Below are positions 2 to 19,863 of a DNA stretch of 64,000 nt, piece after piece (position 1 is the first letter of the stretch; each line of letters begins with the position of its first letter). Origin of the DNA: an uncultured archaeon (GTDB lineage Archaea > Asgardarchaeota > Thorarchaeia > Thorarchaeales > Thorarchaeaceae); contig CAYYQL010000007.1 of NCBI GenBank assembly GCA_964473825.1, positions 30,768 to 94,767 of the forward strand. The letters are read 5' to 3'. A program made the position numbers and the translations under genes. The notes beneath the pieces were generated by a model. The model saw nothing but the letters and a program-made list of their open reading frames with translations, did no database searches and was not told where the DNA came from.

Positions 2-2188
2 AACTTTGACGAGATATACCTCTACGGAACCAACTGCACCCTCATCGATACCGACGGGGACGGATTGTCGGACTATTACGAGATCTTCGTGAGTGAAACT
101 TCTTCAGTCAATGCTGATACGGACGGGGACGGCATTCCAGACTGGGAGGAGCTCTTCTACTACTTCAGCGATCCGCTCAAAGTGGATTCAGACGGGGATG
201 GGCTCACAGACTACGAAGAGGCCTTTGTCTACTACACTACACTCAACAACACCGATACCGACGGCGATGGGCTCAGTGACTACGATGAAATCAAGGTCTT
301 CGAAACCGACCCGTTAAACCCGGACACGGACGGAGACGGACTCACAGATTCCGAGGAGCTGAACATCTACAACACCGATCCTCTGAAAGCAGACACGGAC
401 GGGGACGGGCTGACTGACGCACAGGAAGTCGCCATCGGTACGAACCCCCGACTGCAAGACACCGATATGGATAAGCTCACCGATTTTGAAGAGAATAACG
501 TGACTCTGACTGACCCCCTCAAGTTCAGCACTCAGGACAACGGAGTTTCGGATGCAGACTGGGATATGGACAATGATATGCTCACCAACATACAAGAGCT
601 GAGACTGACCAAGACAGACCCCCAGAACAATGACACGAATGGCAACGGCATCATAGATGGTCTAGACGATGAGGACAGAGACCTGTTGACCAACTATGAG
701 GAATGTGTCCTAACAAAGACCGACCCCCGAAACAAGGACACAAATGGAAACGGAATCAGCGACTACAACGATGATGAAGACGGAGATGGCCTTAGCAACG
801 GAGATGAAATCAACATCTATGGTACGGATCCGTTATTGAAAGACACAGACGGGGACGGGGTATCTGACTATGATGAGGTCATGGAATACCATACCGACCC
901 CTTGAACGCCGATTCAGACGGCGACGGACTGGACGATGGAGCTGAGATTTTTGAATGTGGAACGAACCCTCTCTCCAATGACACCGATTCCGACCTGCTG
1001 TCTGACTACGAGGAGATCTTCCTGACCGACACCGACCCGACCACAAACATGACTTACCCGGGAATGCTCGACTCGGAATACGACTCTGACGGCGACGGGC
1101 TCTCCAACTTAGATGAGCTGCGAGTCTACGGCACTCATCCTCTTGACCCAGACTCTGATAACGACGACTTGCTTGACGGAAACGAGGTTGAGATCGGGAC
1201 CTCACCAACGGACCCAGACTCCGACTCTGATGATCTCCTGGACGGTCATGAAGTCCTCGTTCTGGGGACCAACCCGCTTTCAAACGATACCGACTTAGAT
1301 GGCTTGTCGGACTACGATGAGGTCATGGTGTACATGACCGACCCCACCTCAGCGGATACAGACAGAGATTGGCTGACAGATTACGATGAGATCCTCATAT
1401 ACGGAACCGATCCTCTTGATTCAGATAGCGATTCAGACGGAGTGACGGACTATGATGAAGTCATCACTCATGGAACCAACCCGTTCTCGGCTGACACTGA
1501 CGAAGATGGGCTCGACGACTACTTCGAGATAATGGTCTCTCTCACGGACCCGACTGATCCAGACACTGATGCCGATGGGATTGATGACGGTACGGAGTAC
1601 AATGTATACAAGACGGACCCAAATAACCCAGACTCTGACGGTGACGGCTGGACCGATTATGAGGAGATATTCGTGTACGGGACGGACCCGCTGGACCCAG
1701 ATATAGATGCTGATGGCATCCCCGACCCACAGGACTGGAACCCCCATCTCCACTGGGCATTCGAGGTGGCGGGTATATCGGGGTTGGCCATTCTTCTAGG
1801 AGTGGTATTCTTCAAGATACGGGAGAGATATGAGGAAACCGAGTACGTGACCGAGGCCGAGCCCTCAAGCATGGGTCTTGAACCGGGAATGGATGTTGCA
1901 GTGGAATACAAGATTCGCGAAGGGAAGGTGGTCTTCGGCGTCGTCATTCGGAACAACTCAAAGAAGCCCATGCAGAATGTGCACGTTGTCTTAGGAATCC
2001 CGGACCTCACCGACGTGATAAAGGGCGAGAACATAGGAGCTGTGGACGTAGGCAGTCTCTCGGTCACAGAGATAGAGTTTGAACTCGAGCCTGGAGCCGA
2101 GGGCGAGCTGGTTGGAATGGTAGAATACGATACCGTAGAAGGCGAGCATCGCATCGTGAATCTCCGCCCGGTCAAAATAGTAGCATGA
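2..2188 (+). CDS. Cell-surface protein with about 25 tandem thrombospondin type-3-like Ca-binding repeats, one C-terminal TM helix and a cytoplasmic tail. 5'-truncated by the window edge.
   Basis: The frame is open from nt 2, so the track start at TTG 65 is an artefact of the window edge. The motif DTDGDG[LI][ST]DxxE recurs every 23-29 aa. A hydrophobic segment AGISGLAILLGVVFFKI sits near residue 570, followed by a roughly 130-aa tail. Stop is TGA at 2186-2188. Confidence 0.8.
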   Translation, partial: NFDEIYLYGTNCTLIDTDGDGLSDYYEIFVSETSSVNADTDGDGIPDWEELFYYFSDPLKVDSDGDGLTDYEEAFVYYTTLNNTDTDGDGLSDYDEIKVFETDPLNPDTDGDGLTDSEELNIYNTDPLKADTDGDGLTDAQEVAIGTNPRLQDTDMDKLTDFEENNVTLTDPLKFSTQDNGVSDADWDMDNDMLTNIQELRLTKTDPQNNDTNGNGIIDGLDDEDRDLLTNYEECVLTKTDPRNKDTNGNGISDYNDDEDGDGLSNGDEINIYGTDPLLKDTDGDGVSDYDEVMEYHTDPLNADSDGDGLDDGAEIFECGTNPLSNDTDSDLLSDYEEIFLTDTDPTTNMTYPGMLDSEYDSDGDGLSNLDELRVYGTHPLDPDSDNDDLLDGNEVEIGTSPTDPDSDSDDLLDGHEVLVLGTNPLSNDTDLDGLSDYDEVMVYMTDPTSADTDRDWLTDYDEILIYGTDPLDSDSDSDGVTDYDEVITHGTNPFSADTDEDGLDDYFEIMVSLTDPTDPDTDADGIDDGTEYNVYKTDPNNPDSDGDGWTDYEEIFVYGTDPLDPDIDADGIPDPQDWNPHLHWAFEVAGISGLAILLGVVFFKIRERYEETEYVTEAEPSSMGLEPGMDVAVEYKIREGKVVFGVVIRNNSKKPMQNVHVVLGIPDLTDVIKGENIGAVDVGSLSVTEIEFELEPGAEGELVGMVEYDTVEGEHRIVNLRPVKIVA
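65..1745 (+). repeat. Coding tandem repeat array (about 70-85 nt per unit) encoding DxDxDGxxDxxE Ca-binding loops.
   Basis: Recurrent gacacggacggggacgg / gataccgacggcgatgg nucleotide motifs translate to DTDGDG. Confidence 0.7.
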
Positions 2189-2274: not shown

Positions 2275-3582
2275 ATGGGCAAAGCAGGCGGGGCTCCGAT
2301 GACAGATGAAGAGCTACTCCTTGACCTCCGGGAGAGATTAGACCAGCTGGGGATACAGGAGAGAGTTATCCCCGAGAAGATACGCCGACCCTTGGTCATG
2401 ACAAGAATGAGAAGACAGCTGGCCAACAGAGAGGAGGAGCTAGAACGGTCGTTGAGCGCTCTTCAAGACGATGAACTGCTTCCCGAACTCCTGTTCAGAC
2501 TGGGTAATCTGCATCTAGCAGAGGAAGACCTCTCCCGTGCAATCATGCTCTATGAGAAGAGCCTGGAAGATGATGACCGGCAAATCCAGGCATGGATAAA
2601 TCTGGGCCTGGCCAACCTTCTCGATGACCAGCCTCGAGAGGCAATCTCGTGCTTCGGCAGTGCCCTCGCTATCGAACCGGAAAACCCAGAGGCGCTCACC
2701 TACTTGGGTCTTGCGCACCTCGAGATTGGCGAATACGAGATGTGCAAAAGAAACCTGCGAAGTGCAGTTGAAGGCGCCCCGAACAGCGATCGCACCAACC
2801 TTGCGATGGGGTTATTGTTCAAGGAGGAGGGAAACCTCCACGCGGCCATCGGATGGCTAGAAAGGGCCGTCAAAGCAAATCCATCTTGTGTGGGGGCGCA
2901 CCTAGAGCTCGGCAGAGTCCATCTACAGCAGGGCAGCTTTGAGAGGGCGCTCCAGGCACTTGAAAAAGCGAGAAGAGAGGACCCTGAGCAGCATGACGTA
3001 CTCGAGGTCATGGGAGATCTATACTTCAAGATGAAAGACTACATGAAGGCTCTGGAGTACTACGACCTTGCCATCAATCTGAAGATGGACGACCCTGAGC
3101 TCTGGATCAAGAAGGGGGACACTCATGCTGAGAGCAGTTCCTATAGACAGGCATCTGAGGCCTATCTGAGGGCGATGAATGCAGACCCGGGAAGTGTTAT
3201 GGCATGGGTGAAAGCGGGACAGATGCAACTCTTGCTGGGGCATATGGGTGCTGCTCTTGAATACTTCAACACAGCCCTCACTCTGGATCCCAATAACTCA
3301 GACGTAGCCCATAGGAGAGGGCGGATCTATATGGCCATGGATCGATTGGAAGACGCCTTGTCAGATTTCGACCTCGCGTTCTCCACCGACCCGGGAAATC
3401 CGGAACATCTCTACTATCGAGCGCACGTTCTTGAGAAGCTTGAGCGTCTACCTGAGGCGCAGAGAACATGGGAAGTGGCTATGAATCTCTATGAGGAACT
3501 GGAGAAAGCAACACGGATTGCTGAGTGTGGGGCTCGAATCAGACGCATCAAGCGTAGAAGAGAAACAGAAGAATCCAACTAG
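2275..3582 (+). CDS. TPR-repeat protein.
   Basis: Multiple 34-aa units of the form W/LG-Y-A-F-A-P, e.g. AWINLGLANLLDDQPREAISCFGSALAIEPENPEALTYLGLAHLEIGEY. Confidence 0.8.
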   Translation: MGKAGGAPMTDEELLLDLRERLDQLGIQERVIPEKIRRPLVMTRMRRQLANREEELERSLSALQDDELLPELLFRLGNLHLAEEDLSRAIMLYEKSLEDDDRQIQAWINLGLANLLDDQPREAISCFGSALAIEPENPEALTYLGLAHLEIGEYEMCKRNLRSAVEGAPNSDRTNLAMGLLFKEEGNLHAAIGWLERAVKANPSCVGAHLELGRVHLQQGSFERALQALEKARREDPEQHDVLEVMGDLYFKMKDYMKALEYYDLAINLKMDDPELWIKKGDTHAESSSYRQASEAYLRAMNADPGSVMAWVKAGQMQLLLGHMGAALEYFNTALTLDPNNSDVAHRRGRIYMAMDRLEDALSDFDLAFSTDPGNPEHLYYRAHVLEKLERLPEAQRTWEVAMNLYEELEKATRIAECGARIRRIKRRRETEESN

Positions 3583-3595
3583 GCAGTGGATGCTA

Positions 3596-6500
3596 CTACT
3601 CAATACTGCTTGGCAGTGATTTCAACACCTCAACAGACTCAACGTTCGAAACCATCACAAGATAACAGGATAGGGATGTTCGCTCATCCGGAGAGAGAAC
3701 CCTTCTGTCAGCAATGCTGAAGGTCTGAGTCTTGCCGTTTGTGTTGAGTATTTCAAGAGTCCTTCGTGACTTGCATGTTGTGACGATACCCAGAATGGGG
3801 GCGTCAGCATTTTGTATAGCTGCCCAGCCCTCCTCAGGTTCGGGCGCCAGGGCCAACTCGTTCTCCGTCATCACTATCTCTGTCAAGCCGATGTGAAGAG
3901 GAAGCGATATTGCCCTCAGGGGCTTCCCCTGTGGTTCAGTTACACCACGGATACCAAGACTGAATTGGCGTGTCAATCCGCTGGTGTTGTGAGCCGTGAT
4001 CTGCACATGTATCAAGGGGGTGCCAGATAGGAGGAGGTATCTGAGTGTGAATGTCATACCGTGTAGTCCGGGACAATGCTTCAGCACGCTAGTCAATTCG
4101 TAACCGACCCAATGCCCCACCGTGATGTCAGTGATATCCCAGGACTCCTTGGGAACGGCGGACATCCAGTCCCACACACGATAACCAGCAAGCACTGGAG
4201 TGAGCCCTGAATGGAACTTGTCCCACCATATGAATGGCTTGGCATCGGGGAATGTATCATACAAGACCCCTCCTTCCCTGATGTGCTGATAGCGTACAAG
4301 ATTTCCACAGTAGTCGGAAGAAGCAGCAACCTCATACTCTCCTGCTCTGGTTGTCCGTAGTACTATGCCTTCGATGGACTGCTCTTCTCGAGTGATCTCC
4401 AAATCCGAATCGAAGACAACTGCAGTCAATGGTATCGATGCAACGCGATTGGGAAAAACAAGCTCGATTTTTCCGCCTTGGAGAAGCCACGCATCACTCT
4501 CTACGGTTAGAACGAGTGGAATGTGTAAGGGCTGGTCGATGCTCAAACTCATTCCCGGTAGATCGATTTCCTTTCGCTGGTCTATGAAGACACCATCAGG
4601 AGCGATCACCTTCAGGTCAACATTAATTTGGCTCTCGTGAATCACCCGTATCCTAAGCTCCATCTTGTTCTCGTGTGCACGGTCTAGGAATACAGGAGCA
4701 CCGGGAGCTACACGTTCCTGATCTGGGCGTAGGATTTCAACCTCCAAATCAGAACGCAGAAACACTGGAGAAGCCTGGCCAATTGTTGCACCTGTCAGTC
4801 TCCCCCACAGGTCTCGGACGTTCTCCCAGGTCCCCGGACTGAACATCAACCGCAACAGGGGGCTCTTGAAACTCTCATCCACCCCAAGGTCAGGGACCCG
4901 ATACTCGAATCGGGAGATACCCCAGGTGCGCCGCAGACGTGCATCTGCAATGGTATCTGCATCCCAGATGTAACCTAGAACTGCATCTGCACCTGTCCAG
5001 TTCAGAGCACACCAGGACTCTGTATACTCATCAGGATTCTTCGGCAGCTGTTTGATGCCGTTCCACTCGGGTGAGCTCAGACGATACACGTCATTACGAA
5101 GGGGGACGTACATATCGTTACATTCTATCTCGGCCCACCCTCTTATCAAGAGACCAAGATTATCAAGAGCTGCTGATCCCCTGTTTGTCATCTCCACCTC
5201 GATTCCGACGTGTTCGCTGTTTGAGGTCAAGCGATAGATGATTCTAAGATGCAGACCGGGACGATCATTAGATTCGGCCTCCAAGCTGATTTCAGCAACG
5301 TCACCCTGGTTTGTTAGGTGTACGTCAAATTCCTTCTTTTCCCACTCACTGCCGCCTGCAGAGAAGGGATAGCCTACGTCTGGAAGCAGTGCAGCCCACA
5401 TTGGCACCTCAATGGAGAGAGGTTTGTTTGTCAGAATCATAGCGCCCATCGGCGGCTTAGTGCTGATGCCATACCTGATTTGCCTATTTTCCAGAACGTA
5501 CAGGTTATCATGGCTCTCATAGGCATAGGCTCCTGTCTTACCAATCACTGGAATCCTCAGCTTCTTGCTGTTAGCGATTGTTTCTCCGTTACCCTCGTCA
5601 ATGGAGATGACCACTGGCAAAACCAGAAGAGTTTCTTCGACTGGAGCGCCCACATGAATCGTTCTTTCTGCTCTAGAGTCTGCGTCGAGTTTGAAATCAA
5701 ATGTGGAGGGTGAAAGTTCACTTGTGTCAATGAGGACGCGTCCTGCCAACTGCATGCGGGTATTATTCTTGAGACCCAGACCGATCTCTCGTGTTTCGTT
5801 GGGTGCCAAGGCGGGATAACGGGGACTCACGATGAGAGAAATCGCCTCCTGAGGCACTAGGCCATTGAAGAGGTCGATATCCTTCTCGTCGATTCTCACT
5901 TGCCATCGGACTTGAGTCTTCACCTTCACGTCTGGTGTCAGTTCTCTGTCCAAGTGCTTCGCCGCCTGTGACAGGGTATACCTTCCCTGAAGTATGACCT
6001 TGGAACCGTCCTCAACAATCTGTGGAGGTGATGAACTAATACTTGTTACAAGACCCCCGAAGTCCGTATGGTCTAGAGAGATGTTAATGGATGATCCGGT
6101 CTCGTTTCTGATATGTAGATGCCACATAACAGCCCCTAAACCTATGTATCCCACATGGTTCTCAGGTCTTACGTCGACTTCCAAAGTCCGTCCATTAATT
6201 GTCAAAGAGAATCCAGAGATGCCCTTTGCCTCTCGATCCACCGTTACATCCAATATGTCCCCTTCAGCCTCGAAATGATATCTGAAGACCCCAAAGCCGC
6301 CCTCCTTGGTGTCGTCTACCTCTTGACGAATGGTGCGCTTATAGGAGTCATACCAGTAATGGCGATCAAAGAACTCCCTGAACAGGTCGCATGACAGAAT
6401 ACCCGGGATATGGGATTCCATGAGAACCCTTGTACTAGGTACCCAGTTGTAGCCGGTCCGTTTGTATAGAGGTAATGCCTTGAGATTCCCACCCCAGGTG

Positions 6501-6889
6501 TGAAGATCAATCCGTCTCTTACCTTGCCTTGCAGCTGTTTCGGCCGCTTCAATCAGAAGAGCCCGACCAAAGCCCTGCCCTTGGTACTGTGGAGATACCC
6601 CTAGCAGACCAACATACACTGCTTCCTCGTCCAGTTCGCCTTTCGTCACGTTGCAGTGGCCCACTATCTTGCCGTCTTCATATGCCACGATTGTACGAAT
6701 ATCTCTGCTCTTGCTCTTGTCCTCTAGAATGCGCTCGGCGGTGTAGGGAACTCCATGAGTGAATCCTCCGGGCCAGCTGTCTGTGTCGTCAAAAGAGTTG
6801 AAACACTCGGCAAGGAGTGCAGCATCTTCTTCTGTCAATTCAAAGTCCCGCACCTTATCTTGTGTATACTTGGTTATCATATGAGTCAC
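3596..6889 (-). CDS. GNAT N-acetyltransferase domain (about 160 aa) fused to a roughly 930-aa uncharacterised C-terminal region.
   Basis: The N-terminus carries acetyl-CoA-binding motifs: VGLLGVSPQYQGQGFGRALL, and RRIDLHTWGGNLKALPLYKRTGY. The rest is beta-rich with no motif I recognise. Confidence 0.7.
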   Translation of the reverse strand: MTHMITKYTQDKVRDFELTEEDAALLAECFNSFDDTDSWPGGFTHGVPYTAERILEDKSKSRDIRTIVAYEDGKIVGHCNVTKGELDEEAVYVGLLGVSPQYQGQGFGRALLIEAAETAARQGKRRIDLHTWGGNLKALPLYKRTGYNWVPSTRVLMESHIPGILSCDLFREFFDRHYWYDSYKRTIRQEVDDTKEGGFGVFRYHFEAEGDILDVTVDREAKGISGFSLTINGRTLEVDVRPENHVGYIGLGAVMWHLHIRNETGSSINISLDHTDFGGLVTSISSSPPQIVEDGSKVILQGRYTLSQAAKHLDRELTPDVKVKTQVRWQVRIDEKDIDLFNGLVPQEAISLIVSPRYPALAPNETREIGLGLKNNTRMQLAGRVLIDTSELSPSTFDFKLDADSRAERTIHVGAPVEETLLVLPVVISIDEGNGETIANSKKLRIPVIGKTGAYAYESHDNLYVLENRQIRYGISTKPPMGAMILTNKPLSIEVPMWAALLPDVGYPFSAGGSEWEKKEFDVHLTNQGDVAEISLEAESNDRPGLHLRIIYRLTSNSEHVGIEVEMTNRGSAALDNLGLLIRGWAEIECNDMYVPLRNDVYRLSSPEWNGIKQLPKNPDEYTESWCALNWTGADAVLGYIWDADTIADARLRRTWGISRFEYRVPDLGVDESFKSPLLRLMFSPGTWENVRDLWGRLTGATIGQASPVFLRSDLEVEILRPDQERVAPGAPVFLDRAHENKMELRIRVIHESQINVDLKVIAPDGVFIDQRKEIDLPGMSLSIDQPLHIPLVLTVESDAWLLQGGKIELVFPNRVASIPLTAVVFDSDLEITREEQSIEGIVLRTTRAGEYEVAASSDYCGNLVRYQHIREGGVLYDTFPDAKPFIWWDKFHSGLTPVLAGYRVWDWMSAVPKESWDITDITVGHWVGYELTSVLKHCPGLHGMTFTLRYLLLSGTPLIHVQITAHNTSGLTRQFSLGIRGVTEPQGKPLRAISLPLHIGLTEIVMTENELALAPEPEEGWAAIQNADAPILGIVTTCKSRRTLEILNTNGKTQTFSIADRRVLSPDERTSLSCYLVMVSNVESVEVLKSLPSSIE

Positions 6890-7100: not shown

Positions 7101-7874
7101 TTAGGATACGTTCAGAACAGCGTCCACAGCACCAGTCACGGTGGTTACGGATATTGTAAGTGTCTGTAGCGCTGTGTCATAGTTGGGAGTTGCATAGGTA
7201 TTACCCTCAACCACGTCCCAACCGGTAGGAACAACTTCGACAGTTCCAAAAGTTGCAGATGCCGAGAACTGACCGCCAATTCCGCCGGGCAGCACGAGAA
7301 CAATCGAAATTGCCCCAACTCCTGTCTCTAGACTGAAAGAGGGACTCTCATAAAGATTGGTTGTTGAATCCATGCACAGCGAGATTGCGCCTGTTCCAGT
7401 CTTGAGCGATACGTCACCAACAGAGGCGGTTTCATTCAAGTTCACATTAATCGCACTCGTTCCTGTATCAACATCAATTCTGTAAGCACAACCAGTGCCC
7501 AGCGTAATATTGACACCGGCAGCATGATAGTTCAGAGTGATAGTGGTGGGTCCATAAGACACCACAGGCGCGCCGTGTTGCTGCACAGTATGATTGGGCG
7601 CTTGTGCTACGATTCGATATAATAACGAGGAATCGTTTTGGAATGAAATGGAAACTGCTCCTGCACCAATATCGATATCCAAGAGTACAACATCTGGCAT
7701 GGTCTCCTCAGACCTCTCGAAATTGTACTCGATAGTGTTGTTCCAGTCATGGTTTGTAGTCCAGTTGAAGTAGCTCGTGCCGTAATATGTCAGAAGACCA
7801 ACAGCAATTGCGCCAGCCACGATGACAGCTACGATACACATGACCACGCCCCTATTGCGCGTATAGTTACTCAT
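7101..7874 (-). CDS. N-terminally membrane-anchored DUF4097 'toastrack' (LiaF/PspC-like) domain protein.
   Basis: An N-terminal TM segment CIVAVIVAGAIAVGLL. Repeated beta units of the form TG[TV]GAIS and DVDTGTSAINVNL. Overlaps the upstream regulator by 4 nt. Confidence 0.6.
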   Translation of the reverse strand: MSNYTRNRGVVMCIVAVIVAGAIAVGLLTYYGTSYFNWTTNHDWNNTIEYNFERSEETMPDVVLLDIDIGAGAVSISFQNDSSLLYRIVAQAPNHTVQQHGAPVVSYGPTTITLNYHAAGVNITLGTGCAYRIDVDTGTSAINVNLNETASVGDVSLKTGTGAISLCMDSTTNLYESPSFSLETGVGAISIVLVLPGGIGGQFSASATFGTVEVVPTGWDVVEGNTYATPNYDTALQTLTISVTTVTGAVDAVLNVS

Positions 7875-8512
7875 TGTTCTTTCTTCTCCTTTTCATGGTC
7901 TTTCATAAACGAATGCCACTTCTGTTGGAGTTGTTGATACTCAGTGTCCCTCTCCAAGGCGTATCGCCTCATTATCCGCGATGCATCCTTCTGTACAGAT
8001 TCGGACAGTTGGCGGTATGCTTGCGGATCCTCTATCGGCAAGTTCGAACTAACCTTGTTTTCTCGCTCTATTAGTGGCTGAAGTATCGCAATTGCGTCGT
8101 CTACTTCTTCACCTGGAATCTTGATGCCATATACAGAGAGGCTCGATATCATCGACTCTAGGCGCTTTCGGGCGAACTGGGCCACACCATCATCAGCCTG
8201 CAGCATACCACTCAGCCCAAGACGATACTCTCTTGCCGTGGTGCGATAGTATCTCTGGACTATTCCCGTGACGGTCTGCTCAGTTCGCTCCTGGACAACC
8301 AGACCCGCCTTCTTCAACTTGTCAATATGGTGAAGGATAGTACCGGGATTTTTGTCGAGAGCATCAGCAAGCTGCTTCACCGTCATAGCACTGTTGACCA
8401 GATACTTGAACACTATTTCTGCACGGGTTGGCTCGAAGAGGACCTTGATAGTCTTCGGGTCGTCAATGATGCAGAGATCTTTCATCGTAGGGGGTGATTG
8501 ATTCTCGCCCAA
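7871..8512 (-). CDS. ArsR-family winged-helix transcriptional regulator with a C-terminal coiled-coil extension.
   Basis: The HTH region LFEPTRAEIVFKYLVNSAMTVKQLADALDKNPGTILHHIDKLKKAGLV matches the ArsR/SmtB HTH pattern. Confidence 0.7.
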   Translation of the reverse strand: MGENQSPPTMKDLCIIDDPKTIKVLFEPTRAEIVFKYLVNSAMTVKQLADALDKNPGTILHHIDKLKKAGLVVQERTEQTVTGIVQRYYRTTAREYRLGLSGMLQADDGVAQFARKRLESMISSLSVYGIKIPGEEVDDAIAILQPLIERENKVSSNLPIEDPQAYRQLSESVQKDASRIMRRYALERDTEYQQLQQKWHSFMKDHEKEKKEQ

Positions 8513-8514
8513 GA

Positions 8515-9426
8515 CTATGCACCTCCAATCATTCCGATATTGGGGTGTTCTTCGGCACGACCAGCATCATAATCACCGCTCAAAATCAAGTAGACGCGAG
8601 TCAGCGCAATCACCAGTGACGGCACGAATACAAACACCACAAAGATTCCCATAATTACGCCGTATGTTCCGATGAAGGCCATATTCAAGAAGGGAATCAA
8701 TGTGGAAAAGGCTGCAGCAGGGAGAAAGAGCGCAACAGCGATGAGAACATAGGCAATCCAGACCCCGAAGACACGGTCGAAGTACACTATGCTCATGGTC
8801 ACAGACTGTTTGTATGCTGTGAGTACCGGTACACCATCTATCACGGCGGGTATCATCATTGAAAGCAGGCCTGCGGAGATGATTAGCCACACTGCGCTAA
8901 AGACCGACAGCCCGACAAAGGGGAGGCCCGTGACCAGACCGCCGTATACAAATGCGATGGCAAGTGCAATCATGCCGGGCGGCCCCAGCAATGTCAAGAA
9001 CAGAAGCAGGCCGGCAGCTGCCAGAGGGGCAAACTTGGACCGATACCATGTGAAGACTCCCTCAGCAGTGGTACCCTCACTCTCAACAATCTCACGCCCC
9101 ATCCCAAAGAGTGCACCTATCGCTACGAAGAACGGACTCAGAATGGGAAACATTACCAGAGTACCGACACCCACAGCGCCGAGGGTGCCTGCAATTGTCC
9201 ATTCGGTCTCAACCATCGCGGCAAAGGTGGTAATAATCTCTAATCCATTTCCAAACACAAAGAGCGGGACGAAGACAATCACTGCAATTAACACAAGAAG
9301 TAGCCCAGACACAATAATAACACCGAGCATTCCCAAGAAGAAAGTGACTATGTTCTTTGTCGCGAAGCGGAAGCTCACCTTCAGATCGTGGAGGATTACA
9401 CCAAAATCCGTTTGCTTTTCAGACAT
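8515..9426 (-). CDS. Polytopic membrane protein, paralog A. Unknown family, roughly 6-8 TM helices.
   Basis: The track start at 9495 is probably too long. By alignment with paralog B (MSTTFGTIVDDMKQSLRIAKSNMLSFFLANLGM) the start is MSEKQTDFGVILHDLKVSFRFATKNIVTFFLGMLGV. Hydrophobic throughout. Confidence 0.65.
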   Translation of the reverse strand: MSEKQTDFGVILHDLKVSFRFATKNIVTFFLGMLGVIIVSGLLLVLIAVIVFVPLFVFGNGLEIITTFAAMVETEWTIAGTLGAVGVGTLVMFPILSPFFVAIGALFGMGREIVESEGTTAEGVFTWYRSKFAPLAAAGLLLFLTLLGPPGMIALAIAFVYGGLVTGLPFVGLSVFSAVWLIISAGLLSMMIPAVIDGVPVLTAYKQSVTMSIVYFDRVFGVWIAYVLIAVALFLPAAAFSTLIPFLNMAFIGTYGVIMGIFVVFVFVPSLVIALTRVYLILSGDYDAGRAEEHPNIGMIGGA

Positions 9427-9498
9427 CTTGATTTCACCACATAATAGGAGCAGAGGGCTCGAAGACCGGAGTCCACGACCCTCTACATGAACCACGTT

Positions 9499-10440
9499 TT
9501 AGACTATTGGTATGTTAGGCTCGACCTGCTCAGCAATCTTCCCACCTGTAAACTCTATGTAGAGCTTGGTGATAGCAATGACTGTCATCGGCATGAGTAG
9601 TAGGAGCCATAGTAGACCAGCTGTTACCGCCCATATCCCTATAACGGCGAGAACGGGATCGATGGTAACTGGAGGAGTCGTGGGCATTGGCATGAGCGGC
9701 CCGTACAGAACACCACCAATAATCATCGGGGCGAACGTTACAACTGCGAGAAGGATGATTGCAGTGATCAGACCGAAGACTCTGTCAAAGCGCTCAACGG
9801 AGAGCCTATACGACTCCTTGATTGCCTCCTGAACGCCTCTGCCTTTTGCTACTGCAGGAAAGGACATCACGAAGAGCCCGACTGTGATGTAGGTCCAGAC
9901 GGAGGTCACAATGGAGACAGCTATAGCAGGGATACCGGTGACTGTGCCACCCAACGCCAGTGAGGCCACACCCCATATGAGCAAAGATGGAAGGATGATG
10001 ATCACAGTCAGAACCGCTCCAAGGCCAGCAAAGCTGAGGAACTTGTGCCTGAAGTATGAAAAAGCAGACTCGGCATGGGTCTTGCCGGTCTCGACAGCCT
10101 CTGTGCTCATTCCGAACACTGAGCCCACTACTACAAGGAAGAGAGAGGCAATCGGAATAAAGATGAGTGTACCGACACCACCGACTAACCAGGGATTGTG
10201 CATTGCCCACGTATGCATGTTAACTCCAAAGTTGACCCAAAAGGTCGGGTCAACAGTAAAGGCAACTATCACGATAGGGATTACAAGGATTGCAAAGAGT
10301 ACGCCAATCAGAACAGCCATTCCGAGGTTCGCGAGAAAGAAACTCAGCATATTGCTCTTCGCGATGCGTAGACTCTGCTTCATATCATCGACGATTGTTC
10401 CAAATGTTGTAGACATCGTTTCATTCACCATGTATGTCAA
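9499..10440 (-). CDS. Polytopic membrane protein, paralog B (tandem duplicate of paralog A).
   Basis: Same N-terminal motif and TM pattern as 8515-9426. The true start is probably the internal ATG giving MSTTFG, near 10416. Confidence 0.65.
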   Translation of the reverse strand: MTYMVNETMSTTFGTIVDDMKQSLRIAKSNMLSFFLANLGMAVLIGVLFAILVIPIVIVAFTVDPTFWVNFGVNMHTWAMHNPWLVGGVGTLIFIPIASLFLVVVGSVFGMSTEAVETGKTHAESAFSYFRHKFLSFAGLGAVLTVIIILPSLLIWGVASLALGGTVTGIPAIAVSIVTSVWTYITVGLFVMSFPAVAKGRGVQEAIKESYRLSVERFDRVFGLITAIILLAVVTFAPMIIGGVLYGPLMPMPTTPPVTIDPVLAVIGIWAVTAGLLWLLLLMPMTVIAITKLYIEFTGGKIAEQVEPNIPIV

Positions 10441-10516
10441 ACGTCAAGCGTTTGATGTTTGTCAAACGTAGCACCGAATGTTTGCTTATAAATATTTTGA
10501 CGTTTGCCAAACGTTG
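10436..10516. promoter_or_regulatory. Cluster of CAAACG/CGTTTG half-sites including a perfect palindrome CAAACG-tcaag-CGTTTG, plus an AT-rich TATA-like tract TTATAAATATTTT at 10485-10497. This is the promoter region of the membrane/ArsR/toastrack operon.
   Basis: Seen directly: gtcaaacgtcaagcgtttgatgtttgtcaaacgtag at 10436-10471, and ttgacgtttgccaaacgttg at 10496-10516. Confidence 0.5.
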
Positions 10517-10905
10517 TTCAGTACACACGGAAACTGTCCCAGGAATCGTCCAATCAGTTTCAACCCACGAAACACGATGTACAAGATCCTCTATCCGCGG
10601 AATTCCAAAGCTGAAGCACAAAGCACATGATGACTCAAAGGCTCTTGTGACCAGTTGTTGGTTCACGCGAATATGTCCCAAGTCCGCTCATCCGAGGAGT
10701 CAGACAACCACTCACGGATTCTCATCCACAGTCCCACGAAGACCCACTCTCTGAGAGTATAAATCGAGATTCGGAAGAAAGGCTATGTGTTCAGCATCGT
10801 TGGATTGTGGCTCGGCGTCATGGTCATTGCCCTCCATCCGTGTCCTATCATGGTCACGATGTTTCCTGACATGGCCAGCAGTTCTGTCGCGCTCGCGGAC
10901 TGGAC

Positions 10906-14187: not shown

Positions 14188-14239
14188 ACGACAGAAGAGA
14201 GCAACAGATTCTTGACCATCGTTGTGTCCGGGAACCAAG

Positions 14240-15274
14240 ATGAACATCGAAGAGGCAATCCGCGCTCTGCCGAAAGCAGAGCTACACATTCATACCTTGG
14301 GCTCTATCAGACCCACAACGCTACTTGACATCATAAACGAGTCAGATAGCACCCGTTCCATGTCTGAAGAACAAATGAGCAAAATGTTCCAGTATGATGA
14401 CTTTCCCCATTTCATAGAGACCTATAAGACGATTATCAGGTATATCACACATGAGGAGTATTTTGAAAGGATTACCTTTGAGATGCTTGGGGATTGCAGC
14501 AAATCCAACATCAAATACGTTGAGGCAAGTCTGTCTCCAATAGACCATGTAGAGCAGGGTCTTGACTACTTCAAGATGATTCAAGCGGTGAGGAGAGGGC
14601 TTCGCCGAGGGGAGAAGGTGTTCGACATCGAGTCGGACATCAGAATCGATCTTGTAAGAGAACTAGATTCCCGGGCTGCAATGCAGGTGCTCGACTGGGT
14701 TGAAGAAGACATGGAGAAGATTGTTTCAGTGGACATCGGAGGAAGCGAGGACAGATTTCCACCCGCGCCCTTTGTAGATGTCTTTCAGAGGGCGAGAGAT
14801 ATGGGTCTCCATCTGATTGCTCATGCCGGTGAGGCTGCGGGGCCGCAGTCCATCTGGGATGCAATCAGGTTGCTGCAAGTGGAGCGCATTGGTCATGGAG
14901 TAAGCGCTCGAGAAGACCTCCGATTGATGGCTGAACTAAAGGAGAGAGGTATAGTCATCGAGGCTTGTCCTATCAGCAATGTACGTACTAAGGCTGTTTC
15001 CAGTATCGAGGATCACCCAGTCAGAGAATTCTATGACTATGGCCTCAATGTAACTGTGAATAGCGACGATCCGACGCTCTTCAACACAGATTTGAATAAT
15101 GAATATCTCCAGCTCCATAGACATCTCGGGTTCACCCTTCAGGAACTCGCTCAACTCTCCCTCAATGCAGTGGATGCAGCCTTCATCGTAGAGGGTGAAC
15201 GGTCCAAGCTTCGTTCTGCAGTCCTCGAAGAATACAAGAGAATTCGCGCCTCTTTGCGGGAAACGCCCATCTGA
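14240..15274 (+). CDS. Adenosine/AMP deaminase family amidohydrolase.
   Basis: Metal-binding motifs ELHIHTLGS, HAGE and NSDDPTLFNTDL match the ADA family. The likely start is the ATG giving MNIEEAIRALPK. The track start GTG at 14222 is upstream in the same frame. Confidence 0.75.
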   Translation: MNIEEAIRALPKAELHIHTLGSIRPTTLLDIINESDSTRSMSEEQMSKMFQYDDFPHFIETYKTIIRYITHEEYFERITFEMLGDCSKSNIKYVEASLSPIDHVEQGLDYFKMIQAVRRGLRRGEKVFDIESDIRIDLVRELDSRAAMQVLDWVEEDMEKIVSVDIGGSEDRFPPAPFVDVFQRARDMGLHLIAHAGEAAGPQSIWDAIRLLQVERIGHGVSAREDLRLMAELKERGIVIEACPISNVRTKAVSSIEDHPVREFYDYGLNVTVNSDDPTLFNTDLNNEYLQLHRHLGFTLQELAQLSLNAVDAAFIVEGERSKLRSAVLEEYKRIRASLRETPI

Positions 15275-15360
15275 GGGCGGGTGGACTTCTCGAAATGACG
15301 AATGGCCAAGAAGCGGTGTGCTTCATATAGAACCCACCGGATATACTCATTCCGCGTGGT

Positions 15361-15395
15361 ACAAACGTCAAGCGGTTGCTGTTGGTCAAACATTC
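15361..15395. promoter_or_regulatory. Second copy of the 35-nt CAAACGTCAAGCG(G/T)TTG element, about 29 of 35 positions identical to 10437-10471.
   Basis: acaaacgtcaagcggttgctgttggtcaaacattc, in the gap between the deaminase and the epimerase genes. Confidence 0.5.
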
Positions 15396-15563
15396 CATAG
15401 AAAGAACATAGATCTTCGTTTTTTCACCAGACTCTTACTCAAGCCCATAGACCTCTCTTATCGAAAATATCGTGAACGCTGACTCCTCAAGTGCAATCTC
15501 CGGATCCCATGTGTGGAGAAGGACGCTGAGAAAGGACAGGATGACTAGCAATGTAGAGGTAAC

Positions 15564-16577
15564 GTGAAATCCATGAAACAACTAAATAGGGAACGGCATT
15601 ACTTTCACACTATGCGAGTACTGCTGACTGGAGCCTTTGGAAACGTTGGAGAGAGCACGCTGATAGCCCTATTCGATAAGGGGTATGATGTCCGATGCTT
15701 TGATGTGCCTACAAAGAGTAATGAAAAGAAGCAACAGGAACTTCAAAGACTCGGAGGGTTTCAGACAGTCTGGGGAGATATCCGTGATGCTGATGCTGTA
15801 TCTATGGCAACTCGTGGTATGAATGCAATCATTCACCTAGCGGCCATCATTCCCCCAATGACTGAGAAGTACCCAGATATTGCTAAAGCCGTGAACGTAG
15901 TTGGCACAGCCAACCTGTTGGCTGCTGCAGAGGAAATGCACACCAATCCAAGATTCATCTATGCTAGCTCTGTGGCGACCTTTGGACAATGCAACGGTGA
16001 TGGCCCACCAAAGACTGCGGCAGATCCTGTATGCGCTACCGATACCTATACCACTCACAAGATCGAGTGCGAGAAGATGGTATGGGAGAGCGGATTACCA
16101 TGGGCAATACTCAGGTTTGGAGTTGTCACTCCTCTTGCTATTACTAGTGAGTTAGACCCAATAGTGTTCGAGATTCCTCTGGAACAGCGGATTGAGTTTG
16201 TTCATACTAGAGATATTGGTCTAGCATGTGCAAATGCTGTTGAGGCAGATTGTCTGGGGAAGGTGCTTCTTCTCGGGGGCGGGCCCTCATGTCAGATGAG
16301 GTATCGTGACCTCGTGCAGGGCATGCTCGATGCAATGGGAGTTGGTATGCTACCGGACAGCGCCTTCAAGCGGCCCACCTGTGAGGAAGAGTGGTATCAA
16401 ACTGACTGGATGGATACGGAAGAGGCTCAAAGAATTCTTGCGTTCCAGAAGCATGACTTCCAAGATTTCTTGAATGAGTACAAGAAACGCGCTGGAATGA
16501 GGCGACATATTGCGAGGCTTTTCAGACCCATAGTACGGCGAAAGCTGCTCTCGGCCTCACCGTACTACAAGGAGTAG
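15564..16577 (+). CDS. NAD-dependent epimerase/dehydratase family protein.
   Basis: Rossmann motif VLLTGAFGNVG near the N-terminus. The true start is possibly the ATG at 15612 giving MRVLLTG. Has the YxxxK-type SDR layout. Confidence 0.75.
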   Translation: MKSMKQLNRERHYFHTMRVLLTGAFGNVGESTLIALFDKGYDVRCFDVPTKSNEKKQQELQRLGGFQTVWGDIRDADAVSMATRGMNAIIHLAAIIPPMTEKYPDIAKAVNVVGTANLLAAAEEMHTNPRFIYASSVATFGQCNGDGPPKTAADPVCATDTYTTHKIECEKMVWESGLPWAILRFGVVTPLAITSELDPIVFEIPLEQRIEFVHTRDIGLACANAVEADCLGKVLLLGGGPSCQMRYRDLVQGMLDAMGVGMLPDSAFKRPTCEEEWYQTDWMDTEEAQRILAFQKHDFQDFLNEYKKRAGMRRHIARLFRPIVRRKLLSASPYYKE

Positions 16578-16742
16578 GTGGTCTGACAGGGATTGCCACT
16601 GCCCCGATATCGGCAACAAGCCATCTGTTGGTCGCGCAAACTACCGAGAGCACTATGAAGAGTCTGATGCCTTACCGGCTGGAGAACACCGCTAGAGCAT
16701 GAAATGGGGAAAGGGGATATCCCTATTTTGTGAATTGGTGTC

Positions 16743-17042
16743 TCACTCGTGCCACGGACTCTGAGGGGTTCTATGGTGCCTTCTTGAGGTGTAGTACGGA
16801 GTTTCACGCCCGGTACCATTGGTGAACCAGCTAGCGACCCATTTCCCCAAGTATCCGTTGACGATTGCCCCAATTGCCACTCTGATGATTGCAGCGATGT
16901 TGTAGAATGTGCTAGATGCAACGTTAAGCAGCAATCCGAAAAGCCAGAGGGGTATACCGGCAATCAGGAGTAGAATCAAGCATCCCGGCAAAACAGCCAG
17001 AACGAAAACGGTGGCCAGTGGTAACCGTCCTGCCCCTCTCAA
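16743..17042 (-). CDS. Small hypothetical membrane protein (two predicted TM helices).
   Basis: Only ORF-level support in an otherwise empty 730-nt gap. Hydrophobic segments LATVFVLAVLPGCLILLLIAGIPLWLFGLLL. Confidence 0.25.
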   Translation of the reverse strand: MRGAGRLPLATVFVLAVLPGCLILLLIAGIPLWLFGLLLNVASSTFYNIAAIIRVAIGAIVNGYLGKWVASWFTNGTGRETPYYTSRRHHRTPQSPWHE

Positions 17043-17310: not shown

Positions 17311-18447
17311 GTGAATGATGTTGTCTTCGAGTGTGAGTTTCTTGGTCGAAACCATGGCAGCATAGAGGTGGATAGTGACGTTACGGAGATCAACCTTGTT
17401 GAGATGGACATTGTCAGCATCGATCTCAGTCCAATTGTCCGCTGTAGTAACCTCGAGCGCCTGACGCTGTCAGAAAACCCACTTCGTGACATTGACCTTA
17501 CACCGCTTGCTCAATGTAAGAAACTGCAGGAACTCTGCCTCCGTTGGAATCAGCTTGACCAAGTAGATTTGAAGCCCCTTGGTCACCTAGACAATATGAT
17601 CGAGATTGACATCTCATCAAATGGACTCAGAAGTGTTGACCTAGAACCCCTGAGAGGAAAGCATACGATTCGTGACCTGTACGTCTCTGCCAATGAGATA
17701 AATGAGATTGACCTTTCGCCTCTTGTCGATTGTAGGAGTCTTCGCTATCTTGGTCTGACTCATAACCTCCTAAAGGACGTGAGTTTGACAGCGTTGAGTC
17801 AGTGTCCAAACCTTCGCTATTTGGGCCTTACAAGCAACAGAATAGAGAGTATAGACTTGGGACCCCTTGAAAACTGCAGCAGACTCGAGAGAGTCGAACT
17901 AGAGCACAACGAGATTGAAGAGCTTGACTTGCGCGCATTGGATACGTGTCGAAGCCTCGAGTACCTCAATCTGAAATCAAATCGGTTGCAGAGTCTTGAC
18001 CTCGAACCGCTCAAGCGTTCCACACGACTCCGGTATCTGCTGCTCTCATCCAATTCACTAAAGACCATCGATTTGTCGCCGCTACAGAACTGCGAGAACT
18101 TAGAACAGCTGCTCCTCGACCACAACGAGTTGCAGCATATGGAGCTGGATCCTCTAAGCCAGATACCCAGCCTTCGCGAGCTGCGTTTGGGAGCGAATGC
18201 ATTGACAGAGATTGATCTCTCACCCGTCAAAGGCATGCGAAATCTAAGAACCCTTGATCTTTCAGACAACCCACTCGAGCCAGTGAATGTAACTCCCCTC
18301 TTCTTCTGTGAAGCACTAAGGAAATTCAATGTCGAGAGATCAACACCGGGTAGGGCGATCCGTTTGATGGCTGATGGGAATGAAAAGGGAAGGGAAAACT
18401 TACCGAGGGCTATAAGGGAGATAGAAGAACGGATTGAGTGGACCTAG
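17311..18447 (+). CDS. Leucine-rich-repeat (LRR) protein with about 13 repeats of 22-23 aa.
   Basis: Repeating LxxLxLxxNxLxxxDLxPLxxCxxL units, e.g. LERLTLSENPLRDIDLTPLAQCKKLQELCLRWNQLDQVDLKPL. Confidence 0.85.
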   Translation: MNDVVFECEFLGRNHGSIEVDSDVTEINLVEMDIVSIDLSPIVRCSNLERLTLSENPLRDIDLTPLAQCKKLQELCLRWNQLDQVDLKPLGHLDNMIEIDISSNGLRSVDLEPLRGKHTIRDLYVSANEINEIDLSPLVDCRSLRYLGLTHNLLKDVSLTALSQCPNLRYLGLTSNRIESIDLGPLENCSRLERVELEHNEIEELDLRALDTCRSLEYLNLKSNRLQSLDLEPLKRSTRLRYLLLSSNSLKTIDLSPLQNCENLEQLLLDHNELQHMELDPLSQIPSLRELRLGANALTEIDLSPVKGMRNLRTLDLSDNPLEPVNVTPLFFCEALRKFNVERSTPGRAIRLMADGNEKGRENLPRAIREIEERIEWT

Positions 18448-18477: not shown

Positions 18478-19863
18478 GTGTATGACAGATACATGTGCGG
18501 GGATGTCAGCAGACTTCTCCATGAGGCTCGCCAGTGTTTAGACTCGGGAGAATATGAGTTGGCCACTAAGAAGATAGAGGCAATCCTAGCAGTGGTACCA
18601 GAGTCAGATGAGAGCCACGTAAAAGCCCTCGTCCACCTTGGAGAGATTCTCTGGCAACGCGGGAAATACGACGAGGCTCGTGATATCCTCAAGCGGGCCC
18701 AAGAACTCGGAGAGAAACAAGGATACGTCAGCCTCAGTGCCCGGGCTCAACGACTGACTGGTAATACCCTCATCGACCAGGGATTTGGCCAGCTGGCGGA
18801 GAGAGCCTATAGCGCAGCTCTGGAGATGTTTGAAAGCGTAGATGATGCTAGGGGAATTGCCCGATGCTACAACAACCTCGGTATCGTTAGTGTTGACAAG
18901 GGCAATTTCATTGATGCCTTGAGATACTACGAGCAGTCTCTTGATATGCATCGAAAACTTGGGGACGAAGTTGGAACTGGTATGTGCCTCAACAACATCG
19001 GAGAGATCCATCGATTCAAGGGGGAATACGAGCTAGCTGAGGAGTTGTACCAAGAATCACTGATAGGTGATACAGAAAGAGGGGATCGGTACGGACAAGC
19101 CATTTGCTGGGGCAATCTCGGTGCGGTATCGTATGGCCGGAAAGAATATGCAAAGGCAGAAGAACGCGTGCAGAGGGCGGTCGAGATATTCAACAAGCTG
19201 GGTATTCGTGACCTCGTTTATGTTGAGATTCGAGGACTTCTAGTAGGAATAATGGCTGCTACAAAGCGATTTGATGGTGGCCAAATCCATCTAGATGCTA
19301 TCTGGGATGCTGCGGAAACTCTGAACTCCGATGCCGCAGACATCATCTGCCACTTCTATGGTGGTTTGCTGGCACAGCGTCAATGGAACTTGTCCTTTGC
19401 CAGGAAGCACTATAACAACTGTCTTGAGCTCTCAAAGAGAGCACGGTCGTTCGAGTTCGTTCTCCTGTCGCTGATGCAGCTCGTTGAGATTGAGATGCTA
19501 CATTACAGAGTGACAGGAGAGGAGCAGTACCTAGAGGCGATGCAGAGAACACTACATCAGGCATTGAATCTCGCCGAGACTCACAATCTTCACGCACCGC
19601 TGGTAGAACTCATGGTCCTGAATGCCCTCTTTCATGTCGAGAGCCAGAATCCTGAGAGAGGTCTGGAATTGCTGAAAGAAGCAAAGGAGGTCTGCCATAA
19701 GAAGGGTTTCGAGTCTAGGGAGAAGACCATCGTGAGTCTTATGGAAGACATCCACATACGGCTTGAGTCCGATGCTACAAGTACAGAGACTGTAGAGGCG
19801 AAACTCAAACGTCTTCAGGAGTACATAGAGGACTGTCAGCGGGTTGTACTTGCCAGCAAGTAG
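18478..19863 (+). CDS. TPR-repeat protein.
   Basis: Repeated units of the form A-R-x-Y-N-N-L-G, e.g. ARCYNNLGIVSVDKGNFIDALRYYEQSL, and GMCLNNIGEIHRFKGEYELAEELYQESL. Confidence 0.8.
   Translation: MYDRYMCGDVSRLLHEARQCLDSGEYELATKKIEAILAVVPESDESHVKALVHLGEILWQRGKYDEARDILKRAQELGEKQGYVSLSARAQRLTGNTLIDQGFGQLAERAYSAALEMFESVDDARGIARCYNNLGIVSVDKGNFIDALRYYEQSLDMHRKLGDEVGTGMCLNNIGEIHRFKGEYELAEELYQESLIGDTERGDRYGQAICWGNLGAVSYGRKEYAKAEERVQRAVEIFNKLGIRDLVYVEIRGLLVGIMAATKRFDGGQIHLDAIWDAAETLNSDAADIICHFYGGLLAQRQWNLSFARKHYNNCLELSKRARSFEFVLLSLMQLVEIEMLHYRVTGEEQYLEAMQRTLHQALNLAETHNLHAPLVELMVLNALFHVESQNPERGLELLKEAKEVCHKKGFESREKTIVSLMEDIHIRLESDATSTETVEAKLKRLQEYIEDCQRVVLASK

Follow-up and report, generated by a model that had tools for sequence, protein, structure and literature searches.

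A conserved pair of palindromes around the TATA box of a Thorarchaeota membrane-protein operon, probably the operators of its own PH1932-type ArsR regulator

Phr, the ArsR-type heat-shock repressor of Pyrococcus furiosus (PF1790, PDB 2P4W), has a 29-bp binding site that overlaps the transcription start, and SurR (PF0095) of the same organism activates some target genes and represses others (PMC6316755). In bacteria, modules of Toastrack/LiaF-PspC-associated winged helix-turn-helix (wHTH) proteins of the HAAS-PadR-like type have been proposed to signal envelope stress without a histidine kinase (PMC11237479). For the family of PH1932 from Pyrococcus horikoshii (PDB 1ULY/2CWE), the searchable literature yielded neither an operator nor a regulon. 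Here, we analyzed a 64-kb stretch of DNA from an archaeon of the Thorarchaeota (Asgard) lineage, which is referred to below as the window and to which all whole-window counts apply. A four-gene operon on its minus strand (7101-10416) encodes two polytopic membrane proteins, an ArsR-family regulator of the PH1932 type and a Toastrack-like protein, and is preceded by a cluster of palindromic sites. Judged from comparative sequence analysis, it is probable (about 70%) that positions 10436-10512 are the core promoter and operator array of this operon and that the ArsR-type regulator represses its own operon.

The regulator (third gene, 7871-8485, minus strand, 204 aa) was matched by HTH_5 (PF01022; 43.8 bits, gathering cut-off 22) and HTH_20 (38.3 bits, cut-off 27). 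Its profile aligned over the full length with PDB 1ULY (E 1.1e-24, profile positions 11-204 on chain residues 3-191), and, like PH1932, it combines an ArsR-type winged helix with a C-terminal helical domain. The recognition helix is also very similar (T-I-x-H-H-I-x-K-L-K-x-A-G-L-V), and the helix-turn-helix and wing hardly vary among the Asgard homologues (NPGTILHHIxKLKxxG and TGIVQRYYR). Phr shares the ArsR-type wHTH and the C-terminal helical domain, but its sequence relation to the regulator is weak (2P4W, E 1.2e-4; NF053602, 18.6 bits against a cut-off of 320) and its motif is another one. The likeness to SurR consists of an archaeal ArsR-type regulator with short GTT...AAC inverted repeats; however, the SurR motif is GTTn3AAC compared to GTTTG-N8-CAAAC here, and in the alignment the redox CxxC switch is not conserved in the regulator. 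The match to the metalloregulator model NF033788 reached 37.6 bits (cut-off 55), the conserved metal ligands are absent, and no Cys is conserved in an alignment of 27 sequences, which also holds for Cys5, the only Cys of the window protein. PADLOC returned a generic wHTH similarity to Csa3/CasR only. Homologues with 58-95% identity were found almost exclusively in metagenome-assembled genomes of Thorarchaeota and other Asgard archaea. The promoter is archaeal, so that the logic of the TATA box and the transcription factor B recognition element (BRE) applies to it, and not that of sigma-70.

The original prediction had described a repeated 35-nt palindromic element in two intergenic regions of the window, interpreted as operators of a dimeric winged-helix regulator, with the ArsR protein of the operon as the candidate and possibly autoregulatory binder. 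Its sequence statements and its gene calls for the operon and for an epimerase gene were reproduced. The promoter region contains the perfect 6-5-6 palindrome CAAACGTCAAGCGTTTG (CAAACG-N5-CGTTTG) at 10438-10454 and three further CAAACG/CGTTTG hexamers at 10463, 10501 and 10508. Five of the 27 hexamers of the window are thus packed into 76 bp (10438-10513), and every other 100-nt window contains fewer than three. The second copy is likewise real: a 30-nt core at 15362-15391 matches the first copy with 3 mismatches (0.00 expected from shuffles), and a repeat search lengthened the pair to 41 nt with 80% identity at a distance of 4924 nt. Both copies are intergenic, the first 5' of the minus-strand operon and the second between an adenosine deaminase gene (14222-15274) and the SDR epimerase gene (15612-16577). 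The bare 6-5-6 pattern, allowing up to 2 mismatches, was found 4 times in the window against 1.6 expected, which is not a significant enrichment. The significance within the window lies in the half-site cluster and the long colinear match, not in the bare pattern.

The conserved unit is an 18-bp palindrome, GTTTGR-N6-YCAAAC (5-8-5), which occurs twice in the promoter and flanks the TATA box on either side. A 5-8-5 scan of the window with at most 1 mismatch returned three matches only, namely O2, O1 and the second copy. O2 (10450-10467) is a perfect palindrome (GTTTGA-tgtttg-TCAAAC, 0 mismatches), and O1 (10495-10512) reads GTTTGG-caaacg-TCAAAA on the minus strand, with 1 mismatch. The TATA box between them (TTTATAA, 10486-10492, minus strand) was read from the sequence and from its conserved position between O1 and O2, and was judged to fit the archaeal consensus TTTAWATA. 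O1 ends 2 nt 5' of the TATA box, which is the position of the BRE, and is invariant among close relatives. O2 lies 18 nt 3' of the TATA box in the direction of the operon, over the expected transcription start. The 6-5-6 palindrome consists of the distal arm of O2 and an auxiliary half-site, GTCAAACG (10436-10443). This arrangement is retained in the closest relatives only; in most species, it is replaced by a loop-less CAAACGTTTG. Extra half-sites 3' of O2 are present in nearly all orthologous promoters, in varying arrangement. The array is followed by a Shine-Dalgarno sequence (GGTGA, 10425-10429) and by an ATG (10414-10416) at which the first operon gene probably starts, both on the minus strand (10414-10429). 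Orthologues keep GGTG followed by ATG 7-9 nt later, and the upstream ATG at 10431 is not kept.

For comparison, 80 Thorarchaeota and other Asgard loci from species-representative genomes, 1.17 Mb in total, were retrieved by alignment of the regulator. The density of the hexamer was 9.4 and 4.1 per kb in two 200-nt bins located 2.2-1.8 kb 5' of the regulator gene, compared to a background of ~0.3 per kb elsewhere, i.e., an enrichment of about 20-30-fold. These bins coincide with the orthologous operon promoter, two genes of ~310 aa 5' of the regulator. The 5-8-5 motif, scanned with at most 1 mismatch in DNA up to 10 kb from the regulator gene, gave 161 sites in the 1.17 Mb, compared to ~38 in shuffles, and 119 of the 161 lay in operon-promoter zones. 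At least one site was carried by 56 of the 69 loci with sufficient upstream sequence, and two or more by 45 of them. The 13 loci that lacked a site comprised 11 of a paralogous operon type, one that was cut by a contig end, and one true exception (L030). Among operons with the membrane-membrane-regulator-Toastrack-like arrangement (type A) whose promoter is on the contig, 56 of 57 carry the motif; operator and regulator are thus co-inherited. The idea of operators for a dimeric winged-helix regulator survived this comparison, as the half-site is concentrated at the orthologous promoter in related genomes, but the 6-5-6 element did not stand as the conserved unit.

A TATA-anchored profile built from 42 orthologous promoters reads aCGTTTGgCGttyAyCAAAcaA-TTTATAA-N14-GTTTGaTATgtgtCAAACGTT. 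The anchoring demanded CAAA immediately 5' of the TATA box, which makes the right arm of O1 partly circular; the left arm of O1 and the whole of O2 played no part in it. Arm positions are kept in 35-41 of the 42 promoters and TATA positions in 33-42 of the 42, while the flanks hold ~0.1-0.3 bits and the spacer is variable. Counted from the TATA box, O1 occupies -20 to -3 and O2 +21 to +38 in the consensus. O2 begins 14 nt past the TATA box and the usual archaeal TATA-to-start distance is ~25 nt; O2 is therefore placed over the start site. The start-to-start distance of O1 and O2 is 41 nt in most species, and the TATA box lies 60-90 nt 5' of the Shine-Dalgarno sequence and ATG in orthologues. 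We found no prior description of GTTTGR-N6-YCAAAC, or of any ArsR operator in Asgard archaea, in the searchable literature.

The same blocks stand out when the window is compared with its close relatives L002 (95% identical to the window) and L083. O2 is 100% identical in the three sequences, and the O1-TATA block (30 nt) and the stretch from O2 to the ATG (54 nt) are invariant. Variable positions make up 8 of the 19 columns of the TATA-O2 spacer and about one-third of the upstream columns. Farther upstream, between O1 and a MOT1 transporter gene, lies an unusually long region of ~390 nt (10517-10905) that is free of gene calls, in which open reading frame (ORF), Rfam and protein-family signals are all absent. 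This region diverges faster than the operator blocks among close relatives.

Two non-operator explanations bear on this architecture. The palindromes could act as a hairpin in the leader RNA and control how the operon mRNA is translated or how stable it is, and the 6-5-6 palindrome would indeed fold within the leader (minimum free energy, -9.6 kcal/mol). However, this fold is no better than those of shuffled sequences (z -1.64, 15 of 200 shuffles equal), O1, being 5' of the TATA box, would be absent from the transcript, and the arms are invariant instead of covarying, with the loop-less CAAACGTTTG in most species. There was no Rfam match to the palindromes, and searches of the window with Rfam at gathering thresholds and with a tRNA scan gave no match. 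With a shuffle-level fold, an untranscribed O1 and no covariation, the leader hairpin was rejected as highly improbable. Still less credible is a dispersed repeat or mobile-element remnant, similar to repetitive extragenic palindromic (REP) sequences or miniature inverted-repeat transposable elements (MITE), that was duplicated by chance into two intergenic regions and has no regulatory role. The two colinear copies 4.9 kb apart, one within a lineage-specific segment, would fit such an origin. Yet there are just two copies in 64 kb, and the first is fixed in the TATA register at the orthologous promoter of dozens of species whose regulators are 52-70% identical. This explanation was also rejected, given only two copies and the fixed orthologous position. 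What had been presented as a repeated 35-nt element is instead promoter architecture, and no repeat family is involved.

The comparative loci also point to a second target. Of the seven perfect sites located elsewhere than in the operon promoter, six fell in one orthologous place, the divergent promoter shared by the genes for a flavodoxin (~164 aa) and a radical-SAM protein (~400 aa), at a distance of 7-9 kb from the regulator (L036:19135-19152, L044:8905, L048:14290, L056:9374, L061:18923 and L063:18204). In this promoter, half-sites abut the TATA box in both directions, and the radical-SAM gene has an O1-like site with a TATA box. In seven other species (L005, L018, L020, L022, L024, L029 and L031), the same radical-SAM gene (66-76% identical) heads the operon itself behind O1, TATA and O2. 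That the operator is kept with the radical-SAM gene whether this gene is inside or outside the operon is a classical sign of a regulon. These arrangements suggest that in other Thorarchaeota GTTTGR-N6-YCAAAC may also control a radical-SAM enzyme and a flavodoxin. Apart from this promoter, the remaining 5-8-5 matches in the 80 loci were at chance level or coding coincidences; one source of chance matches is the coding motif LFGNEQT in a GNAT-domain protein. A metagenome scan for GTTTG-N8-CAAAC-NN-TTTATAA yielded, among the matches listed (at least 120), three true Thorarchaeota promoters (L110, L160 and L197). The other matches listed were chance hits in unrelated DNA that lacked O2, and no new regulon members were among them.

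If the sites are operators of the PH1932-type regulator, its homodimers would bind at O1 and O2, with about four helical turns from centre to centre. O1 overlaps the BRE, where transcription factor B (TFB) would bind, and O2 lies where RNA polymerase should start. Bound dimers would then block the recruitment of TFB and the TATA-binding protein (TBP) or of the polymerase, resulting in negative autoregulation by promoter occlusion, and the operon would repress itself until a signal frees the regulator. Repression from the start site, as by Phr, is the logic proposed for O2; unlike Phr, the Asgard promoter adds a second operator at the BRE and the auxiliary half-sites. Alternatively, the regulator may activate or play a dual role, in which binding at O1 recruits TFB/TBP, and O2 together with the leader half-sites represses only at high occupancy. 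O1 would be located at about -50 to -33 from the expected start and overlaps the BRE by a few bases only, and the radical-SAM/flavodoxin promoter has clear sites between its two TATA boxes and no good O2. Moreover, SurR switches between activation and repression by target gene (PMC6316755). On the other side, O2 is conserved as well as O1 and lies over the expected start, and at the divergent promoter the half-sites directly next to the TATA box in either direction suggest occlusion. We consider an activating or dual role unlikely, and favor repression.

The assignment of the operon's own regulator as the binder draws on co-inheritance, on the homology to PH1932 (and the weak one to Phr), and on a joint change of recognition helix and operator layout in paralogous operons. 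The paralogous operon type, noted ~2.8 kb 5' of the regulator match in L033, L043, L045, L050, L052, L053 and L065, encodes a protein of ~600 aa, one of 302 aa and a regulator, and several genomes contain both operon types. In the paralogous regulators, the recognition helix is altered to NPGN(V/I)LRHI, and the operator layout becomes CAAACGTTTG-N9-CAAACG-TTTTTAATA-N3-5-CAAACG, with the TATA box between the CAAACG half-sites. It is more unlikely than an activating role, but conceivable, that another transcription factor, encoded elsewhere, binds the motif and that the ArsR protein of the operon has different targets. The 5-8-5 scan reached 10 kb from the regulator gene, and a genome-wide regulon would point to a global factor. 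Against such a factor, the motif and the regulator are co-inherited across ~56 species, layout and recognition helix have changed jointly in the paralogous operons, and the motif is at chance level outside these promoters in the 1.17 Mb. The ArsR protein of the operon, which the original prediction had named as the candidate, is thus probably the autoregulatory binder on comparative grounds.

Several observations weigh against autorepression by this regulator. Its link to the sites comes from co-occurrence only, and O1 lies mostly 5' of the TATA box, where some archaeal factors bind to activate transcription. Compared with the consensus, O2 is 4-5 nt farther from the TATA box in the window and its two closest relatives; the O1-O2 spacing there is 45 instead of 41 nt, and helical phasing is therefore not strictly kept. 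The exception L030 (CP070658.1, a closed Thorarchaeota genome) has the membrane-membrane-regulator-Toastrack operon and no recognizable motif: the 4.5 kb 5' of the operon contain no CAAACG/CGTTTG hexamer, and a 5-8-5 site is absent as well. The Thermococcales orthologues of PH1932 differ in both operon and apparent promoter motif. Unlike the Asgard regulator, they head an operon of regulator, DUF211 protein and second wHTH protein, without the membrane and Toastrack genes. Their promoters (L084-L086, three sequences only) show TTATAT followed by two ACGTTYAAA boxes ~20 nt apart, which look unlike GTTTGR-N6-YCAAAC, yet have ACGTTT in common with the Asgard half-site. In addition, the Toastrack assignment of the fourth gene falls under curated thresholds.

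This fourth gene (7101-7874, minus strand, homologues in 60 of the 80 loci) encodes one N-terminal hydrophobic segment and a LiaF-C/Toastrack-like domain, which matched PF09922 with 25.3 bits (cut-off 29, E 1.5e-5, positions 13-113 of 114) and NF040535 with 30.4 bits (cut-off 57). The first gene (9499-10416, minus strand) encodes a polytopic membrane protein with homologues in 76 of the 80 loci, and the second (8515-9426, minus strand) its polytopic paralogue with 33% identity; neither has a family match in Pfam or NCBIfam. Like the bacterial Toastrack modules, the operon combines a wHTH regulator, multi-transmembrane proteins and a membrane-anchored Toastrack-like protein. It differs from them in that the regulator is of the ArsR/PH1932 type and not PadR, the Toastrack match is sub-threshold, and the host is an Asgard archaeon. 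HAAS, PspC and LiaI-LiaF-TM domains were not detected in the operon proteins, and no prior description of Toastrack together with ArsR was found in the searchable literature.

Another system with similar logic is SdpR/SdpI of Bacillus subtilis, in which an ArsR-family autorepressor is reportedly sequestered by a co-encoded polytopic membrane protein (Ellermeier et al. 2006). The two systems have in common an ArsR-family regulator and polytopic membrane protein(s) within one operon, and the resemblance is one of logic only: the regulator scored 35.7 bits against the SdpR model NF033789 (cut-off 100), and the membrane proteins fall outside known families. SdpR/SdpI is nevertheless a plausible model for how a membrane signal might relieve repression. 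Genes for two polytopic membrane proteins and a Toastrack-like protein always accompany that of the regulator; the signal is therefore probably one from the membrane or envelope, and we hypothesize that it relieves repression, possibly by sequestration of the repressor.

The second copy is a paralogue of O2 and its auxiliary half-site (15362-15402, plus strand, 33 of 41 nt identical). Its 5-8-5 core lies at 15374-15391, where one arm has changed from CAAAC to CAACC, at a position kept in 40-41 of the 42 operators. It has no adjacent TATA box or O1, and it is located ~190 nt 5' of the epimerase gene's own TATA-like box, AACTAAATAG (15580-15589), which lies 27 nt before the ATG and is conserved between the window and L003. 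The copy and the epimerase gene are part of a lineage-specific segment of 1.77 kb (15195-16963, plus strand). The window and L002 are colinear on both flanks, and L002 has, in place of the segment, 614 unrelated nt with homology to a 154-aa gene of L082; the second copy is thus not conserved in the closest relative, where the entire segment is missing. In L003 and L082 (both 85% identical to the window), the epimerase gene is placed between the operon, from which it diverges, and the MOT1 transporter gene; the intergenic region of 122-160 nt that separates it from the operon contains O1 and O2. The epimerase gene of the window is 75.6% identical over 959 nt to the operon-adjacent gene of L082.

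From its place beside the operon in L003 and L082, it appears that the epimerase gene was relocated in the lineage of the window and lost in L002. Most simply, the second copy would be a part of the control region that became duplicated as the epimerase gene left its ancestral position at the operon. Whether this fragment still usefully binds the regulator is doubtful, and it does not look like a clear second operator, given the altered arm position, the lack of its own TATA box and O1, and the absence of the segment from L002. Adjoining the relocated gene are genes for a leucine-rich-repeat protein (17311-18447) and a tetratricopeptide repeat (TPR) protein (18478-19863), which are conserved in L002.

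On the 3' side of the operon, the minus-strand gene at 3596-6889 encodes a protein of 1097 aa that carries a GNAT acetyltransferase domain at its N-terminus (homologues in 37 of the 80 loci), and 2275-3582 encodes a TPR protein (homologues in 43 of the 80 loci). Near the start of the window, an array with a 69-nt period (46-1672; ORF 65-2188, plus strand) encodes Asp-rich repeats of the DxDxDG type, which resemble calcium-binding thrombospondin type-3 repeats; this large ORF may extend past the window start.

Autorepression by an ArsR-family protein through palindromic operators in an archaeal promoter is a known, conventional mechanism. What is new is the Asgard example: in the literature searched, such a gene switch was not yet described for the Thorarchaeota lineage. 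To our knowledge, transcriptional regulation in Asgard archaea is almost unexplored, as few members have been cultured. The present analysis supplies an operator consensus (GTTTGR-N6-YCAAAC), the way in which the operators bracket the TATA box, and a candidate cognate regulator with a solved homologue, together with a minimal candidate regulon of the membrane proteins, the Toastrack-like protein, the radical-SAM enzyme and the flavodoxin. These predictions are open to culture-free tests with recombinant protein and synthetic DNA.

A broader reading, which we regard as speculative and rather improbable in its entirety, is an Asgard-wide signalling module that operates without a kinase. A PH1932-type repressor clamped around the TATA box would be sequestered by the co-encoded membrane proteins and the Toastrack-like protein once these sense a membrane or envelope perturbation, with a logic like that of SdpR/SdpI or of the HAAS-PadR-like systems; the operon and the radical-SAM/flavodoxin genes would be induced, and the envelope or its lipids would be modified; as part of the same joint proposal, the SDR epimerase would ancestrally have belonged to this envelope/lipid-modifying regulon. 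If true, no earlier stress regulon would have been defined together with its operator in the archaeal lineage nearest to eukaryotes. For the structurally solved PH1932 family, the operators around this TATA box provide a first candidate DNA target.

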